A stretch of 5,823 nt of DNA, taken from the IMG/VR virus record IMGVR_UViG_2713896784_000012, positions 1 through 5,823 of that record. The stretch is one strand, 5' to 3'. The notes under the pieces are model-generated. The model made no database searches and had not been told where the DNA came from. It saw only the letters and a program-made list of their open reading frames with translations. This document shows positions 1 through 5,823 of this stretch, piece after piece (the first letter of the stretch is position 1; each line of letters starts with the position of its first letter). The stretch is from a virus (Duplodnaviria; Heunggongvirae; Uroviricota; Caudoviricetes). The position numbers and the translations under genes are program-made.

Positions 1-569
1 AATGCGTCCACCACCTGATTGCAGACTGCCCACCAGGATAATTCAGCCAGCGATAATTCCCGCTCCTGCGTGCCATTCATTACATGGCGTATGACGTCAA
101 TCATCCAGGCTGTCAGATTTTGTTGAGTAAGTTGCTCAAGTGATTCGGAGGTCTGGTCGCGCAGCTGGTTGTCGCAGTGCCAGCACAACACCATTGCGCC
201 AGCACCGTAACTGTGAATAACGGTTTCGCTGTGATGATAATCGCCGTGTGGCCACTGGCAGGATTTCACGTGACGTAATAACCAGTCAGACAGTGCACCA
301 GCGCCGCCAGCTGCACGAATCACCCGCTCATCGCTGAAAAATGGCAGCAGTGATTTATCTTCCGCCAGCGGCTGGCGAACAGCAGGAACCGCTCCAGATG
401 GCAGCGCCCGCATGTTTTTCGGTTCCGGCTCCACCAGCACCCTGCCGCGATGAAAAACTGGCAATGATTCACGACCGGGCTTAAGGACCACCAGCCCGAG
501 TTCCGGAACCAGAACAGGTCGAAGTAATACCCGCACATTACCTCCAGACGCGCTGACGGTAGCAGGCAT
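1..569 (-). CDS. Partial CDS (3' end beyond left edge): hypothetical Cys/His-rich prophage protein. Frame is open from 620 down to 1; candidate starts are ATG 569 or GTG 590, or the frame is joined by frameshift to the 538..810 ORF
   Basis: Manual minus-strand translation gives an uninterrupted frame of more than 200 codons (…VHICHGHMPATVSASGGNVRVLLRPVLVPELGLVVLKPGRE…HVKSCQWPHGDYHHSETVIHSYGAGAMVLCWHCDNQLRDQ…ELSWWAVCNQVVDA) leaving the window at position 1. It is absent from the ORF track only because it has no in-window stop. No convincing SD precedes either candidate start. Family not recognised; its position after the nin-like region and its size are compatible with a large DUF968/YdfU-like or late-regulator gene, but that is inference only. 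Confidence 0.45.
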   Translation of the reverse strand, partial: MPATVSASGGNVRVLLRPVLVPELGLVVLKPGRESLPVFHRGRVLVEPEPKNMRALPSGAVPAVRQPLAEDKSLLPFFSDERVIRAAGGAGALSDWLLRHVKSCQWPHGDYHHSETVIHSYGAGAMVLCWHCDNQLRDQTSESLEQLTQQNLTAWMIDVIRHVMNGTQERELSLAELSWWAVCNQVVDA

Positions 570-810
570 GTGTCCGTGGCAGATGTGCACGAACAGGAAG
601 ATATACAGAAACGGTCCAGGTCAGACGATCAGCGTTCAGACTCCGCTCCACACGGACACCGCGACGCAGATACGCCTCTTGAAGCATATCTGCCTCATCG
701 ATCGTACAGAACAGATAGTGAAACCAGCCATACTGAGGCGCACGAAAACGCCTCCCCTGCTTAATTTCCGGGTCGGCTTCAGAATTGTGGGATTTTATGT
801 GTTGTGTCAT
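538..810 (-). CDS. Hypothetical protein (90 aa as an isolated ORF); possibly the N-terminal part of a longer frameshifted gene continuing in the 1..620 frame
   Basis: ATG at 810 preceded by a good SD (minus strand …ccGGAGAatccgATG). The ORF stops at 538-540 while the neighbouring frame is open from 620 leftward. Product not recognised. Confidence 0.45.
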   Translation of the reverse strand: MTQHIKSHNSEADPEIKQGRRFRAPQYGWFHYLFCTIDEADMLQEAYLRRGVRVERSLNADRLTWTVSVYLPVRAHLPRTHACYRQRVWR

Positions 811-884
811 CGGATTCTCCGGTGACAGCAGGTGTCAGTTGTTCAGGCTGACTGCGCGAATTGTAAGGCAATACGCCGGAATGT

Positions 885-913
885 ACAAACAGAAAACCCG
901 TCAGTAAGACGGG
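885..913 (-). terminator. Rho-independent terminator downstream of the BOF gene
   Basis: Inverted repeat cccgtc (897-902) / gacggg (908-913) with a 5-nt loop, followed on the minus strand by TTTTCTGTTTGT (complement of 885-896); lies 19 nt after the TAA stop at 932-934. Confidence 0.6.
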
Positions 914-931
914 CTTAACAAGCAGGGGCGG

Positions 932-1276
932 TTACTTTAATAATTTCAGTGCCTTTACATCAACTTCAACACTGCTCAGGTCTTTATCAATTTCACCCTC
1001 AATTCTTACTTTGTCTTTCGGAGAAACATTCTGCCCGGCCCATACGCTGTCATCAATATCCGTGACAATTGTCCCGCTATTGTCACGAAACTCATAACGT
1101 TCATCACCCACTTTTTTAACGATGCTCCCTTCAAGGATAACCCATGCATCATCCTTCAGTTCTTTTGCCTGCGCTACTGTTGAACGCTCTGCTTCTGGCC
1201 CCTGGAAACCACCCTGCTGTGCAAAAGCGCCAAAAGACACACCGGAAATAAGTGCTGCAATCAATACCTTTTTCAT
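932..1276 (-). CDS. YgiW/YdeI (BOF, bacterial OB-fold) family periplasmic protein with signal peptide; prophage cargo (moron) candidate
   Basis: 114-aa ORF. N-terminal signal peptide MKKVLIAALISGVSFGAFA. The mature part (…DDAWVILEGSIVKKVGDERYEFRDNSGTIVTDIDDSVWAGQNVSPKDKVRIEGEIDKDLSSVEVDVKAL…) matches the recalled YgiW/YdeI pattern. SD AGAGGA lies 6 nt upstream of ATG 1276. Own terminator downstream. Confidence 0.85.
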   Translation of the reverse strand: MKKVLIAALISGVSFGAFAQQGGFQGPEAERSTVAQAKELKDDAWVILEGSIVKKVGDERYEFRDNSGTIVTDIDDSVWAGQNVSPKDKVRIEGEIDKDLSSVEVDVKALKLLK

Positions 1277-1518
1277 TCATAGTCCTCTTTCAGAGATGAA
1301 CATTCAAACAGCATTTTCAGTATGGTAAAGCGCGGGTGCGTTGAGGATGCCTGACACATCAGAGGTGGCGGGAGATTACTCCCCCGCCTGGTCTCTTACT
1401 TCTCAGATTCGTAGTCTACGAAGACAGCGACCTCCGTCTGACCGGTTCGGATTCGCACCTCGCAGAGGTCTTTCCTCGTTACCAGTGCCGTCACTATGAC
1501 GGTTAAACAGATGACGAT

Positions 1519-1568
1519 NNNNNNNNNNNNNNNNNNNNNNNNNNNNNNNNNNNNNNNNNNNNNNNNNN
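1519..1568. other. Run of 50 N (assembly gap or masked sequence)
   Basis: Directly visible as n characters; gene content across and next to it cannot be trusted. Confidence 0.99.
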
Positions 1569-1746
1569 GGCTTTTCTCTATCTGCCGTTGGTGTTCATGC
1601 CCGAGGCAGATAGCCTCAAGCACCCGCAGCAATTCTACTTAACTATCCTTTTCCCGCAAACCGTTTTTATCCCCAGCGGCAAATCGAATACACCACCAGC
1701 GCCACCGCCATCGCAATTCCTACCGTTGTGAATGCTTCAGGCCAGG

Positions 1747-2304
1747 TCATTGATTCACCTCCTGCGGCGGTTCTGGTAGCGACATCCAGTGGGTTGCTTG
1801 CCTAAGATCATTACCCGGACTAACTGCTATACCTCCGCGCCGGAACGTGCCTCCGAGATAGCGTGCGGAATATATTAATGGCCCAGCCTCGCTATCGATA
1901 TTCATCGAAATAAGCACGTTCTGGCTCTTTTCAGGCATTCGCTCAGTACAGCTTATCCAGCCATCCAGAGTTATCGGAGATCTGGTTGACGTTTCCGAGA
2001 TTTCCCGAAAATTGTTGGTTGACGAATTCTTATTTTCCCGAAAGTTTCCGGCCTGAAGCATGGCGACGCGGCAGGCGTTCCAGCCATCAGCATATGTTTT
2101 AGTTACACCGTCGAGATGGCAGGTAAGCAAATCCATTTCATCAGGCACTACCATTGCTATCGGCTCTGCTTCCAGTGATGCCAGCGCGATACGAAACACA
2201 TTAGCCAGCAGGCTGTCTGAAGACTTGTTATCGTGCGCCGAGTCGCTCAGGAAGCCTGTGATGTATGATTTAATCTCCGCGCGTTCTCTGGTAATAGTGC
2301 TCAT
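1747..2304 (-). CDS. DUF551 domain-containing prophage protein
   Basis: 185-aa ORF with C-terminal …DGWISCTERMPEKSQNVLI…GPLIYSARYLGG…THWMSLPEPPQE, matching the recalled DUF551 signature (THWMPLPEPP near the C-terminus). SD AAGGAA lies 7 nt upstream of ATG 2304. The stop of the upstream gene (2306-2308) abuts the start. Confidence 0.8.
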   Translation of the reverse strand: MSTITRERAEIKSYITGFLSDSAHDNKSSDSLLANVFRIALASLEAEPIAMVVPDEMDLLTCHLDGVTKTYADGWNACRVAMLQAGNFRENKNSSTNNFREISETSTRSPITLDGWISCTERMPEKSQNVLISMNIDSEAGPLIYSARYLGGTFRRGGIAVSPGNDLRQATHWMSLPEPPQEVNQ

Positions 2305-2305
2305 A

Positions 2306-2524
2306 TCAGTTTTCCTTATACGGATTAATTTTATTGTGCAGTGCGCTGAATGATTCCCATGTCACATCGGTATATAGCTCAATAACTGGTTCAAATGTCC
2401 TTCCAATTATCCAGACCAGTAATAGCGGGGATATCGGTATCATCAACACTATAAACAGAATGAAAAACAGAAACTCTGTTGTTCTGCTCTTTCGTGGGTA
2501 ATTTTTTTCTAAATAATGTTTCAT
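2306..2524 (-). CDS. Small hydrophobic (single predicted TM segment) protein, 72 aa, function unknown
   Basis: ORF MKHYLEKNYPRKSRTTEFLFFILFIVLMIPISPLLLVWIIGRTF… with a roughly 23-residue hydrophobic stretch. The gene is visibly AT-rich compared with its neighbours. ATG 2524 is preceded by the hairpin/SD arrangement listed next. Confidence 0.55.
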   Translation of the reverse strand: MKHYLEKNYPRKSRTTEFLFFILFIVLMIPISPLLLVWIIGRTFEPVIELYTDVTWESFSALHNKINPYKEN

Positions 2525-2551
2525 TTCTTACCGCCCTTTCGGGCGGCCTCC
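2525..2551 (-). promoter_or_regulatory. Translation-initiation region with a structured spacer: SD GGAGG, 6-bp GC hairpin with GAAA tetraloop, then UAAGAA-AUG
   Basis: Minus-strand RNA reads …GGAGG CCGCCC GAAA GGGCGG UAAGAA AUG. Perfect 6-bp inverted repeat at 2531-2546, GGAGG at 2547-2551, start codon at 2524-2522. Confidence 0.5.
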
Positions 2552-2651
2552 TGATGTTCTGAGGGTGCAGGAATCCCTCCGGTTAAGGATTTAATAAAAA
2601 TCGTTTCTGATTTAAATCTTCAGTATTTAGTTGTTAGTTGGTTTATCGCCT

Positions 2652-2963
2652 TTATGCTTCAGCCTTATTTCGCAACCAGACACAAACCGGGCCATCTTCC
2701 GTATCATGAATGGAACCAATAAACCAGCCATCGCCCTCTGGTCGTTCCGGTTCCCATGCAGAAATATCAGCATCACACGCATCAAGGTCAGCACATCCTT
2801 CATCTCTGAAGCAGAGGACGTATTGAAGATTATTTTCCTCCATCCAGGCGTTAAACTCTTCCGTTGAAATATATTCCCGACCATCACAGAATTTTTCATA
2901 TTCAGGATGTGTCCAGTAGCCATATCCGTCACGAACTACCGGCATTTCTTTAATTTCACTCAC
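2652..2963 (-). CDS. Small highly acidic, Trp/Cys-containing hypothetical protein (103 aa)
   Basis: GTG start at 2963 with SD AGGAGG 6 nt upstream; overlaps the upstream gene stop by 8 nt. By my count about 25 D/E against 8 K/R, five Trp and five Cys. Family not recognised. Confidence 0.65.
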   Translation of the reverse strand: MSEIKEMPVVRDGYGYWTHPEYEKFCDGREYISTEEFNAWMEENNLQYVLCFRDEGCADLDACDADISAWEPERPEGDGWFIGSIHDTEDGPVCVWLRNKAEA

Positions 2964-3183
2964 TGTTAACCTCCTGCAACGCTACACGATACGCCTTCTT
3001 TATCCACGCCTTACTGCCATATAATTTCGTCTTCATAATAAACACACCTGCACGACTCGCCGATATCCCCGGACAGGTTAACAGCACAGCATCCACCACA
3101 CGGTTATGCTTCCGAAACTCCATTACAGTACTGCTGATAACCACCTGCCCCACCGGGCCGTAATCCTGATACAGGATTTTCAC
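2956..3183 (-). CDS. Small basic hypothetical protein (75 aa)
   Basis: GTG start at 3183 overlapping the TGA stop of the upstream HTH gene (GTGA). AGGAGG lies 8 nt upstream, inside the end of the upstream gene. Net basic composition. Family not recognised. Confidence 0.5.
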   Translation of the reverse strand: MKILYQDYGPVGQVVISSTVMEFRKHNRVVDAVLLTCPGISASRAGVFIMKTKLYGSKAWIKKAYRVALQEVNSE

Positions 3184-3461
3184 GCAGACACCCTCCTGTC
3201 GAAATAAACGTAGTTATTCACTATGCGCAGCGGCATGCCTAATTTTCTGGCAATTTCCCTTCTTTGCATGCCTCTCTGATGCAGTTGCCGCGCCAGCTCA
3301 ATATCACGCTGAGAATATTTTGCCGACGGGTGAAAATCACCACGTAACATCATGCTGATGCCCAGCTCCCGTGCCTTCGTTCTCACTGCCGCTTCAGTTC
3401 GTCCGATAAGTGCGCCAACGCTTTTTACCTTCATCGTTCCCGCACACTGCCGGAGTATCAT
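3180..3461 (-). CDS. Small helix-turn-helix DNA-binding protein (about 93 aa from ATG 3461; alternative start ATG 3434)
   Basis: HTH-like segments SVGALIGRTEAAVRTKARELGI and QRREIARKLGMPLRIVNNYV. The track ORF extends to 3584, but that would overlap the upstream gene by about 90 nt; an internal ATG just downstream of the upstream stop (3494-3496) is more plausible. Confidence 0.55.
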   Translation of the reverse strand: MILRQCAGTMKVKSVGALIGRTEAAVRTKARELGISMMLRGDFHPSAKYSQRDIELARQLHQRGMQRREIARKLGMPLRIVNNYVYFDRRVSA

Positions 3462-3493
3462 GATTTCCGCCCGGCACCACGTCTTCCACCCAC

Positions 3494-4210
3494 TCACCGC
3501 TGCTGTTCTCTGGTGGCGGTAATATCCCGGAGAATATCCCGGCACTTGTTCAGCTCCCGCAGCGCGGCGCAGACTCGCTCCCACTTCTGAACCTGACCTT
3601 TTGCCCGGCGCAGCTCGCGGTTAGCCACATGCAGCGATGGTAAAATCAGACCATCCGGATGCTTTCTGGTGAACGACGGCTGTGACTGCACTGTGACCGC
3701 CACACTTTCCGTTTTTATTTCTTCCTGTGTTTCCGCTTCCCCGACTGGTAACGCAACACCTGCTGGCTGAGGAAAGGCTTTACCATCCGTTTCCGTTATG
3801 GATGCGGCTTTCGGCTCTGCCGGTAAATCAGCGCCCGGTATGCAGTACCGAAATTTACCGCCCTGATTCACGCGAATCAGACGCCCTTTGCTGATTGCCA
3901 TGGCCAGTGATGAATTCGCCCGGCGGGAGGTAATCCCGAACATCAGTGCCAGCTCATCCGCCGTTTGTGGGCCATGATGTTCAATCGCCTCAGTCAGCAT
4001 TTGCGCTGTCACTTTCGGTACCGGTGACACTGGTTCACTTTCACCAGTCTGAGTCAGCCACCACATCGACCCCTTGTTATCCGCTTCACCACGGCGCTTC
4101 AGTTTCCACAGTTCGTTGACAGCATCTTCGCGGCTGATTCCAAGGCGCGATGCCACTACCTGTGAAGAGGCTTTTTTCAGTGCTTTCAGTGCGTCAAATA
4201 CGGTTTCCAT
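3494..4210 (-). CDS. Hypothetical prophage protein with two predicted winged-helix-like segments and a charged C-terminal helical region (238 aa from ATG 4210)
   Basis: The track ORF begins at a TTG (4228); the first ATG (4210) is preceded by GGAGG. Segments …[26 protein letters not shown]… and …[42 protein letters not shown]… look like wHTH motifs (inference). Confidence 0.65.
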
Positions 4211-4243
4211 TAATATTTCCTCCGACAAAATCGTTTCTCAGAT

Positions 4244-4906
4244 TCAAATAAAACCAGCTGCCTTCCGGCGTTCGTATTCCTGTTTCAGCCGTTCAATTGG
4301 CGTTGGCCCTTGCGGGTGTTTCGCCCCTTCCAGTTGTCGTCGCACTGGCGGAACACTCATCCCGTTACCAACATGCTTTGCCCATTTCGTCAGTTGCCGT
4401 TCCGCAAGTCGTTTTAACTCACCTTGCGTCATCTGGCGCTCAATCCCTCTGGTACGCATTTCGAGGCAGATGTGGTACAGCACAGGCTGTGGCCACGGGT
4501 ATTTATCACTCCCGTCGTATCGCCAGGATTCATTGCGCCAGCGCCGGTACTCTTCCATCACGGCATCCACCGTAAGACCAAATGGATTTGCCCCACTCTC
4601 CGAAATCAGCGCAACAAACTCAGCCAGGTCCGGGGGCCACGTTTCACCCGCCCGGCAGCGGTCCATGCACTGACGGCACACCAGACGGATTTGCTGTTCA
4701 GTCATCGCACCAATCTGGGCAATCCAGAGCTTCGAAGGTGCGGCCCCGTTCTTCTGAGTCCAGCGGTTCGAATACACCTCCCCCATGAGCTCCCACAGCT
4801 TCCAGGCCGTTTCCGTTGCTGATAAATCCGTTGTCACGTTCCCACTGTTCGCGTGCAGCCCGGATTTCCTGAACTGCCCGTGATGCCGTGCCACCTGATG
4901 CTGCAT
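4244..4906 (-). CDS. Replication protein P-like (lambda P family helicase loader)
   Basis: Recalled lambda P motifs align: FVAWC region to FVALISES; VDMVYEYCRKRG…YPWKS…MR to VDAVMEEYRRWRN…YPWPQP…EMR; LTDAELRRKAADEL to MTQGELKRLAERQL. SD AGGGGGGA precedes ATG 4906. Sits immediately downstream of the initiator homologue, as in lambda O-P. Confidence 0.8.
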   Translation of the reverse strand: MQHQVARHHGQFRKSGLHANSGNVTTDLSATETAWKLWELMGEVYSNRWTQKNGAAPSKLWIAQIGAMTEQQIRLVCRQCMDRCRAGETWPPDLAEFVALISESGANPFGLTVDAVMEEYRRWRNESWRYDGSDKYPWPQPVLYHICLEMRTRGIERQMTQGELKRLAERQLTKWAKHVGNGMSVPPVRRQLEGAKHPQGPTPIERLKQEYERRKAAGFI

Positions 4907-5432
4907 GGCTTCCCCCCTTGCTGACTGGTTTTACCTGTGCCCTGACGTGCTGCACGTGGCGGGCAAATTTCTGCTCCCACTGAACCTGCGTGAAAACCTT
5001 CCCCTCCGCCATCCAGTAATCCCGGAATGCGGCAAGCTCAGCAGGTGTAAATTCCGGCTCAGGCAGAGCCATACCCCACACTGCTGCCCGTTGTCGAAAA
5101 TCCGGCGACGGCTGCCAGACAGTAGTCATCGAAAATTTCCCGATCGGTTCGCTCAGGCCGTCCAGGTATTCAGGTTCGGCTGTCTGCAACGGCGCACCAT
5201 TCGACTCACTGGTCGGAATACTCTCGCGCGCGTTATGTGTGGGGTTTAATTCTGTATCTGTATCTTTATCTGTATCTTTATCTGTCGTGACTTGTCGTGA
5301 CTTGTCGTGACAGATGCGTGACACGTCGTGACTCATCGTGACAATCAGCATTATGTTTCCGCAGCTTTTCCCGCTCCCGCTGCGCTCTCTTGCGCTCTGC
5401 CGGGGATTTTGCCGTTTGCGAAACGTTACCAT
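4698..5432 (-). CDS. Replication initiator, C-terminal part: open frame containing a DnaT-like domain; frame-broken relative to the N-terminal domain ORF and overlapping the P-like gene
   Basis: …IGKFSMTTVWQPSPDFRQRAAVWGMALPEPEFTPAELAAFRDYWMAEGKVFTQVQWEQKFARHVQ… closely matches the recalled C-terminal region of E. coli DnaT ([63 protein letters not shown]). The true start and true end are uncertain. Confidence 0.6.
   Translation of the reverse strand: MVTFRKRQNPRQSARERSGSGKSCGNIMLIVTMSHDVSRICHDKSRQVTTDKDTDKDTDTELNPTHNARESIPTSESNGAPLQTAEPEYLDGLSEPIGKFSMTTVWQPSPDFRQRAAVWGMALPEPEFTPAELAAFRDYWMAEGKVFTQVQWEQKFARHVQHVRAQVKPVSKGGSHAASGGTASRAVQEIRAAREQWERDNGFISNGNGLEAVGAHGGGVFEPLDSEERGRTFEALDCPDWCDD
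5251..5286. repeat. Tandem hexamer tract (TCTKTA x6), AT-rich, next to iteron array A
   Basis: tctgta tctgta tcttta tctgta tcttta tctgtc; encodes the DKDTDKDTD tract in the C-terminal initiator frame. Confidence 0.7.
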
Positions 5433-5751
5433 TGTCCTCTTTCAGCACCTGACGTTTTTCCCATCCGGAAATAAGGTCACCATCCAGAACCCGCCCCTGC
5501 ATTGCATGCAAAATTGAATCAATTACGTCTTCCGTCACATCAAGCGCACTTGCTAAATCTTCCGTCGTGACATCAATGTGACCACGTAGTGACACGCCGT
5601 GACATGTCGTGACATTTCGTGACGCGCTCACCAGAAGATGGATATACACTGCCATCACTGTTGCGATTGGCTGTCCTGATACCCTGGCAATCGTTCGCCA
5701 CTTGGGGTCATTTGGCATGTCATGCCACAATCTGAGCCAGGCATTAGCCAT
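5278..5751 (-). CDS. Replication initiator, N-terminal replisome-organizer (lambda O-like N-terminal) domain ORF
   Basis: MANAWLRLWHDMPNDPKWRTIARVSGQPIATVMAVYIHLL…GWEKRQVLKE… fits the recalled phage replisome-organizer N-terminal pattern. ATG 5751 with SD AGGTGA 3 nt upstream (the track start at 5757 is a GTG). Stop TAA at 5278-5280 lies at the edge of iteron array A. Confidence 0.7.
   Translation of the reverse strand: MANAWLRLWHDMPNDPKWRTIARVSGQPIATVMAVYIHLLVSASRNVTTCHGVSLRGHIDVTTEDLASALDVTEDVIDSILHAMQGRVLDGDLISGWEKRQVLKEDNGNVSQTAKSPAERKRAQREREKLRKHNADCHDESRRVTHLSRQVTTSHDR
5284..5342. repeat. Iteron-like direct repeat array A: six GTCGTGAC-type cores at 10-11 bp spacing (candidate origin iterons)
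   Basis: Cores at 5284, 5294, 5304, 5315 (tgcgtgac), 5325 and 5335 (atcgtgac); GTGAC is invariant and all copies share one orientation. Confidence 0.7.
5564..5623. repeat. Iteron-like direct repeat array B: six GTGAC-core repeats at 10-11 bp spacing
   Basis: Cores at 5564 (gtcgtgac), 5575 (aatgtgac), 5586 (gtagtgac), 5596 (gccgtgac), 5606 (gtcgtgac) and 5616 (ttcgtgac), same orientation as array A. An inverted GTCAC copy lies at 5534-5538. Confidence 0.65.
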
Positions 5752-5775
5752 ACTCACCTCTTCTGATACCGAACT

Positions 5776-5823
5776 TTACCCTCGAACATCCGGAAGAAAT
5801 CCGGCATGAATATTGTTGGTCAA
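5776..5823 (-). CDS. Possible 3' end of an upstream minus-strand gene entering from the right edge (…LTNNIHAGFLPDVRG, stop at 5776-5778)
   Basis: Only 15 codons are visible; the frame is open to the window edge. No identification possible. Confidence 0.2.
   Translation of the reverse strand: MTNNIHAGFLPDVRG

Follow-up and report, generated by a model that had tools for sequence, protein, structure and literature searches.

Here, we describe a short RNA hairpin that stands between a Shine-Dalgarno (SD) sequence and a start codon in phage DNA. The stretch analysed, called the window below, comprises 5,823 nucleotides (nt) of a virus of the class Caudoviricetes (IMG/VR record IMGVR_UViG_2713896784_000012, positions 1 to 5,823). 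On balance, and with somewhat better than even confidence, we read the hairpin as the middle of a split (noncontiguous) ribosome binding site of the kind known from gene 38 of phage T4, packaged as a portable cassette. Sequence comparison indicates that the hairpin is part of a leader of ~74-110 nt common to thousands of prophages. To our knowledge, few natural split ribosome binding sites have been described, with T4 genes 38 and 25 as the chief examples, and they are usually seen as single-gene curiosities. We found no earlier account of such a site that recurs widely, as a reusable cassette, where prophage mosaics join.

Every gene treated below is on the minus strand. Read on this strand, the order is AGGAGG (2552-2547), the 5' arm CCGCCC (2546-2541), the loop GAAA (2540-2537), the 3' arm GGGCGG (2536-2531), the spacer UAAGAA (2530-2525) and the AUG (2524-2522) that starts a gene of the DUF4014 family. 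The linear gap between SD and AUG is 22 nt, and it falls to 6 nt once the stem is closed. This stem-loop (2531-2546), which we call hairpin 2, has six G-C base pairs (bp), an optional seventh pair between G2547 and U2530, and a GNRA tetraloop. The spacer is purine/A-rich, has no SD of its own and contains an in-frame UAA (2530-2528) that closes the upstream frame; the AUG is the first start codon past this stop, and the same codon is the RefSeq start in identical prophages. The original prediction, made from the letters of the window alone, had proposed precisely this layout with its 22 nt unfolded and 6 nt folded, and the minus-strand reading bears it out in every detail. It had also described an acidic upstream open reading frame (ORF; 2963-2652) and a hydrophobic segment in the downstream protein, and both are there.

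The folding calculation gives the same picture. The segment of 46 nt from 2560 to 2515 has a minimum free energy of -16.4 kcal/mol, against -6.7 +/- 2.0 kcal/mol for shuffled sequences (z = -4.95), and none of 200 shuffles equalled it. All stem pairs are predicted with probabilities of 0.99-1.0, whether the context is 116, 186 or 301 nt. For the SD (2547-2552), the best predicted duplex with the anti-SD has an energy of about -10 kcal/mol. An exact 21-mer of the arrangement occurs once in the window, with 0 occurrences expected. A scan for the whole architecture (an SD, a stem of at least 5 pairs, 4-10 nt, a start codon and an ORF) over 3.4 Mb of related prophage DNA, both strands, returned this hairpin family and three sporadic matches, with no second family. 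The SD-hairpin-AUG arrangement thus exceeds chance. An inverted-repeat listing of the window was uninformative.

The closest known counterpart is T4 gene 38. Its start region, which we read directly, is AAGGAG-AGGGGC-UUCG-GCCCUU-CUAAAU-AUG, with a minimum free energy of -16.7 kcal/mol beside the -16.4 kcal/mol found here. In both cases the SD abuts the 5' base of a G+C-rich stem of 6-8 bp with an extra-stable tetraloop, the linear SD-AUG distance is 22 nt, and 5-6 A/U-rich nt separate stem and AUG (Gold 1988, cited in PMC7297116; PMC3014915). In T4, the structure has been reported to cut a spacing of 22 nt to 5 nt for gene 38 and one of 27 nt to 11 nt for gene 25; mutations that destabilize the T4 split sites reportedly lower initiation, and close T-even phages keep the gene 25 stem (PMC3014915; PMC7297116). 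On all features that can be tested in sequence, the element of the window appears to agree with this T4 family. There are also differences. The loop is UUCG in gene 38 and GAAA here, and the two sites have no sequence homology. The T4 site serves one gene of a lytic phage, whereas the element here is a cassette for at least eight gene families in temperate prophages and usually carries an extra structured leader. Moreover, the mutational evidence is T4's, while the element here is known from its sequence. We infer that ribosomes use this SD, that the stem persists on the ribosome and that the effect on expression is positive.

Gene 25 offers a second, looser parallel, compared here by its published description (Nivinskas et al. 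1999; Malys and Nivinskas 2009, per PMC3014915). As described there, the SD-AUG distance is likewise shortened by an intervening stem, whose phylogenetic conservation is limited to close relatives. In the same account, the effective spacing is longer than here and the stem belongs to a single gene pair, at the 26-25 intercistronic junction.

How far the element has travelled became apparent from a megablast search with 751 bases (window 2250-3000). Hundreds of genomes match query positions 406 to 472/479 (window 2595-2522) alone, at 93-97% identity and between unrelated flanks. This conserved stretch of 74 nt (2522-2595) keeps 80-100% identity while the genes on both sides change. A search with this stretch alone shows that 2368 of 5426 complete E. 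coli genomes (~44%) carry it, at 3432 places, with up to 4 per genome, almost all of them chromosomal. Carriers include Shiga-toxin phages and cryptic prophages of the Qin and Rac types. The leader precedes a DUF7167 pseudogene in one Qin prophage of the K-12 lineage, occurs twice, 1.07 kb apart, in phage ArgO145, and is also present in mEp460, Rac-SA53, several induced prophages and a Salmonella Typhimurium assembly. In a scan of one genome per species, true copies fell under E. coli and Shigella flexneri only, along with one apparent E. coli contaminant and six chance matches. A search for divergent copies through the DUF4014 and DUF7167 families gave almost only proteins of Escherichia, Shigella and Salmonella, and none that was divergent. 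In the literature, we found neither the hairpin sequence nor the DUF names in any paper, and no report of a tetraloop split ribosome binding site for lambdoid phages.

Two pattern scans of IMG/VR gathered ~180 loci (numbered with an L below). Their consensus begins with an A/U-rich part of ~35 nt, continues as AAUCCUUAACC-GGAGGG-AUUYCUGCA-CCCUC-AGAACAUC-AGGAGG-CCGCCC-GAAA-GGGCGG-UA(A/G), and is followed by a gene-specific spacer and AUG. A short class consists of AGGAGG and the hairpin only, 10 nt past the stop codon of a gene for 70 amino acids (aa). In this class (L012; L073, 1465-1503), the upstream stop overlaps an AUG (UAAUG) that opens an upstream ORF (uORF) of 9 codons, MSGGRPKGR; it spans SD and hairpin and ends at the UAA or UAG directly behind the stem. 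This uORF, which the window's long leader does not have, could act as a termination-reinitiation relay. Two further candidates came out of the scans. The use of AAUCCUUAACCGGAGGG as an ordinary ribosome binding site in loci L108 and L111 was rejected, these being chance 17-mer matches in unrelated GC-rich contigs. Another chance match of the pattern, in an uncultured Pseudomonadota contig (L215, 3940-3975), reads AGGAGG-CUCGCCGAAAGGGCGG-UAAAAGAAA-AUG and may be an independent SD-hairpin-AUG arrangement.

Strain MG1655 lacks the element, its Qin prophage being deleted between ydfX and ydfW; the transcriptome and ribosome-profiling data of K-12 are therefore unusable for it. At this place (L187, 1647174-1647636), the leader is missing together with ~4.5 kb of neighbouring genes, which are present between dicC and ydfW in an assembly labelled DH5alpha (L001).

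The distance from the stem to the start codon speaks for a role in initiation. Different genes follow the hairpin in different prophages, and the spacer is 6 nt for DUF4014, 7 nt for DUF7167, 8-9 nt for two groups of Ea22-like genes, and 8, 9 and 7 nt for ORFs of 43, 196 and 66 aa. For the antiterminator gene Q (PF06530) it is 11 nt, with a GGAG of its own in the spacer (GGUGGAGAUAAUAAUG); the other spacers contain no SD. We count this geometry in favour of a ribosome-binding role because a hairpin that belonged to the upstream module only would give scattered distances and a separate SD for each gene. The same observation bears on a different proposal, namely that the hairpin is messenger RNA punctuation: a barrier to 3' exonucleases, or a determinant of processing or stability, between the messages of the replication genes and the nin genes, the downstream gene starting without the distant SD (e.g. 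via an A-rich, unstructured start region). The hairpin does sit at the boundary between replication and nin/Q modules, the short class lies just past an upstream stop codon, and the region behind the stem is A/U-rich. In addition, phages often have very stable tetraloop hairpins between cistrons, as with CUUCGG in T4. Yet punctuation leaves unexplained why GGAG is invariant directly 5' of the stem, why eight unrelated genes start 6-9 nt behind it (11 nt where the gene has its own SD) and why other SDs are absent, and neither a U-run nor a terminator call accompanies the stem. We regard it as an unlikely account of the element taken alone. A barrier or processing role is compatible with all the data, and may coexist with the split site.

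The genes behind the cassette must be translated because they are under purifying selection. Pairwise ratios of non-synonymous to synonymous substitution rates, which we used instead of codon-position polymorphism counts (saturated and uninformative), are 0.2-0.3 for DUF4014 against its relatives and 0.02 for DUF7167. The 111 DUF4014 genes in the collected loci also provide natural variants of the start site: 90 have the split site and 19 a canonical one, GGAG/GGGAG-AGUGAU-GUG/AUG, which is coupled to an upstream ORF and in which the 6 nt are counted from the SD itself. Two plasmid-borne copies (L189/L190, 1470-1503) read GGAUGG in the 3' arm, which disrupts the stem and at once gives an AAGGA at 9 nt from the AUG. 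These variants seem to fit a split-site role, although as comparisons of sequence they are only suggestive. The two plasmid-borne copies lie on a plasmid-like Salmonella contig with TraM, KfrB and KorB as neighbours, where a decayed hairpin is combined with a new canonical SD. As to DUF7167 (P0122-P0131), its genes are often predicted to encode 78-93 aa, extended upstream through the leader, instead of 60 aa, and the Pfam model begins at the post-hairpin AUG. The extended starts are probably mis-annotations due to the unusual ribosome binding site.

Substitutions within the leader give a further view of what is being kept. Among 72 distinct leaders GGAG is invariant, while the linker just upstream and the base just downstream (the last G of AGGAGG, which may be G, A or U) vary. 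In the 5' arm, C-to-U changes occur at 4 of 5 C positions and keep a G.U pair each time. In the 3' arm, G-to-A changes occur at 1 of 5 G positions, compared with 61 of 85 G sites in adjacent same-strand coding DNA (Fisher p = 0.03). This asymmetry fits selection on pairing in the sense transcript and would argue against a palindrome that acts at the level of DNA. One compensatory change of G-C to A-U was found (L100), and its lineage shows the path G-C to A.C to A-U. The loop varies as GGAA (still GNRA), GGCA, UAAA and AAAA. Overall, 97.4% of the cells across all 16 pairs of the leader's three helices are paired, and 95.2% of those in hairpin 2.

These patterns also bear on the simplest view of a shared boundary sequence: that it is a recombination linker that hitch-hikes at a mosaic joint, its hairpin and SD having no function at the RNA level. 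Much about the leader would suit a linker, namely the island of ~74 nt of identity between unrelated flanks, the 31 flank combinations over 196 instances (10 upstream sequence clusters and 8 downstream protein clusters), the up to four copies per genome and two in one phage, the low divergence and the lack of significant covariation. A bare linker would not, however, account for strand-asymmetric substitutions that fit pairing in the sense RNA, for the invariant GGAG or for a start codon at a fixed distance for every gene, and we consider it improbable as the whole explanation. A linker role is itself compatible with a ribosome-binding role, as in the PeSL cassettes of T4-type phages.

The upstream half of the leader complicates the picture. 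Its 5' part (2592-2620) is A/U-rich, with a weak AU hairpin possible at 2618-2593, and may serve as an S1-type enhancer or standby region. There follows AAUCCUUAACC (2581-2591), whose UCCU (2589-2586) is predicted to pair with the AGGA of the SD in a 4-bp helix, P0. P0 would enclose hairpin 1 (2561-2580), in which the GAGGG of an SD-like GGAGGG (2580-2575) pairs with CCCUC (2565-2561) across a 9-nt loop. Except for two single breaks, all changes in the 3' arm of hairpin 1 are C-to-U and compatible with wobble pairing. A complementary GGAGG motif stands on each side of CCCUC, at equal distance, with a loop of 9 nt either way. RNAalifold calls the helix of hairpin 2 independently; it also calls P0 and hairpin 1.

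Several observations weigh against the split-site reading. For the full leader, the ensemble predicts an SD whose AGGA is mostly base-paired to the UCCU upstream, with hairpin 1 in between (unpaired probabilities 0.03-0.5); such pairing, if it forms as modelled, would lower access to the SD and could be a damping of initiation or a regulatory feature. The 3' arm has an SD-like GGGCGGU at canonical distance from the AUG (about -8 kcal/mol with the anti-SD), and although it is paired in every prediction, it allows a reading in which the hairpin hides an SD. The Q gene, with its own SD behind the cassette, indicates that the cassette SD is not always needed. As to covariation, the pair change found in L100 is the only two-sided one, shuffled controls do equally well, and the RNAalifold covariation term is -0.19. 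Of the 16 kinds of stem substitution, 8 break a pair, and an A.C mismatch stands at the third stem pair in 4 of 45 distinct aligned leader sequences. Finally, all copies are at least 80% identical, and their conservation could partly reflect recent spread.

The first two of these points can be developed into a negative or regulated leader, in which hairpin 2 would hide the SD-like GGGCGGU, P0 and hairpin 1 would sequester both GGAGG motifs, and translation would be low or would depend on upstream ribosomes or on a remodelling factor (e.g. a GGA-binding protein). The mostly paired SD, the RNAalifold calls of P0 and hairpin 1, the affinity of the 3' arm for the anti-SD, the placement of CCCUC between its two complements and the 9-codon uORF through the short-class hairpin would all be at home in such a leader. 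On the other hand, P0 closes a large loop with no more than 4 bp, and the search pattern that gathered the leaders fixed its 5' strand (UCCU). Moreover, the short class lacks both P0 and hairpin 1, a uORF would find no start codon in the long leader, and a stem of -16 kcal/mol essentially never opens by itself, so that a hidden SD would silence genes that are under purifying selection. A regulated leader of this kind is unlikely in our estimate.

We looked for other classes of signal around the hairpin. The original prediction had allowed that it might be a transcript-stabilising or attenuating element; related ideas are an intrinsic terminator and a boxB-like site for an N-type antiterminator. 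Its GC-rich stem, GNRA loop and place in a nin-like region could suggest a transcription signal: in lambda, terminators occur in the nin region and boxB adopts a GNRA-like fold. The sequence, however, largely refutes attenuator, terminator and boxB-like site alike. Neither strand has a U-run behind the stem, the letters there being UAAGAAAUGAAAC and, on the opposite strand, CCUCCUGAUG, and the window and a Qin-type locus gave 0 intrinsic terminator calls and no sigma-70-like promoter calls. No boxA-like match was found near 2530-2600. In contrast to a nut site, the loop is a tetraloop and the site lies ~3 kb into the operon, past the replication genes and far from the early promoters. An Rfam search of the whole window with a permissive scan of the leader matched no family, the best leader match scoring 20.5 bits against a threshold of 45, to an unrelated family. 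Only very slight weight is thus left for a transcription signal. A leader peptide through the hairpin of the window's long leader was rejected, since the frame that ends at the UAA or UAG behind the stem contains no AUG, GUG or UUG.

The original prediction had also made initiation depend on RNA folding, with temperature or unwinding as the control. An RNA thermometer was rejected: neither the SD nor the AUG is part of the stem, whose central pair is predicted at p >= 0.997 from 20 to 80 C. Known thermometers (fourU, ROSE) resemble the leader in having structured 5' leaders that involve the SD region, but their SD or AUG is hidden in a weak helix, which opens at 37-42 C. Temperature control is unlikely on these predictions, and the stem seems to be a fixed part of the architecture and not a switch. 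What stands of that proposal is the T4-like split initiation itself, which is the best-supported reading given the anatomy of T4 gene 38, the geometry over eight genes, the invariant GGAG, the pairing-compatible substitutions and the alternative sites; folding as a switch does not.

The genomic setting is that of a lambdoid prophage. Window 2250-3000 is 100% identical to prophages of O157:H7 and other Shiga-toxin-producing E. coli. The gene order runs from replication genes (one of them frameshifted) through DUF1627, small ORFs and the acidic 103-aa ORF, which has no Pfam family (2652-2963), across a gap of 127 nt to DUF4014 (2306-2524), then DUF551, hok/sok and a YgiW-like gene, with RusA and an antiterminator past the window edge. 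This order places the hairpin within the early rightward operon, where the replication module meets a nin-like module. The DUF4014 protein has 72 aa, all of them (residues 1-72) within the Pfam family, and one hydrophobic segment; the stop codon of its gene overlaps the start region of the DUF551 gene (2304-1747).

Some details of these genes deserve mention in their own right. The N-terminus of the window's DUF4014 protein, MKHYLEKN-YPRKSR (2524-2483), is a compensated frameshift of the common MTTLFRKE-YPRKSR: a 1-nt deletion directly past ATGA is followed ~22 nt on by a 1-nt insertion, so the nucleotides are conserved and residues 2-8 are not. Codons 6-8 contain an A7 run (2502-2508), which may be a slippage-prone tract; six IMG/VR loci (L008, L014, L023, L027, L029 and L058) have A6 and a truncated ORF. 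The hok/sok toxin-antitoxin locus (1396-1632) is partly masked by N, and its Rfam sok match of 41.8 bits is below the gathering score of 59. The region of replication or helicase-loader genes (4244-5432) consists of overlapping ORFs. For the E2865 prophage, which is identical, RefSeq annotates a frameshift in the ATP-binding protein, and the prophage is therefore probably defective.

Taken together, a split site in this setting would work as follows. The early rightward operon transcript would run from the replication genes into the nin-like genes, and hairpin 2 would form co-transcriptionally, at once, and then stay folded. The anti-SD of the 30S subunit would pair with the AGGAGG that abuts the 5' stem base and leave the folded stem-loop outside the mRNA track, so that the AUG, 6 nt past the 3' stem base, would reach the P site at a normal effective SD-AUG spacing. 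By standard RNA geometry, ~18 Å across the base of an A-form helix plus 6 nt would correspond to ~8-9 nt of single strand, within the optimal range. SD, hairpin and the first spacer bases would be the unit that recombination moves between prophages, usually preceded by the A/U-rich stretch and the second small hairpin, and a gene that lands 6-9 nt behind the unit would be translated from it. With so stable a stem, the element is probably constitutive. It is plausible that its benefit is insulation, the local hairpin keeping the SD and start region from pairing with the incoming gene, and that the conserved leader sequence also supplies homology for gene exchange.

A more far-reaching version extends this to the whole leader of ~110 nt, which would be a plug-and-play expression adaptor for lambdoid accessory genes. 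Its parts would be the A/U-rich stretch, a decoy SD in hairpin 1 and the ultra-stable GNRA hairpin fused to an SD; folded on the ribosome, this hairpin would set the SD-AUG distance and insulate, while the sequence would double as a homology patch for shuffling. We offer this version tentatively, as a possibility. In its portability the leader resembles the PeSL cassettes, since there, too, short conserved stem-loop motifs in intergenic regions flank small variable ORFs at shuffling joints (PMC2839356, PMC4122927); PeSLs, however, are a promoter and a terminator, whereas the leader here has no detectable one of either and carries a translation signal. The split site of E. coli thrS (Sacerdot et al. 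1998, as cited in PMC7297116) shares a ribosome binding region that is interrupted by a persistently folded hairpin. As cited there, the thrS SD is at a normal distance and the hairpin, which serves as the ThrRS operator, stands between this SD and a single-stranded enhancer further upstream; in the present leader, SD and AUG are the parts that the hairpin separates.

The element has consequences at several levels. Many gene contexts make natural experiments in gene swapping, spacer length and stem variation directly readable. Even if the split-site reading were refuted, there would still be a structured leader that is very widespread, lacks annotation and sits at a recombination joint. If the reading is true, the 30S subunit routinely accommodates a folded hairpin of 16-18 nt between SD and P site, gene-caller mis-starts behind the cassette (DUF7167) are explained, and synthetic biology would gain a compact, insulated ribosome binding site part. 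A translation-level cassette would then join the known vehicles of phage mosaicism. Should the adaptor version hold as well, the mobile unit of that mosaicism would be, in this case, a translation signal and not a promoter or terminator.

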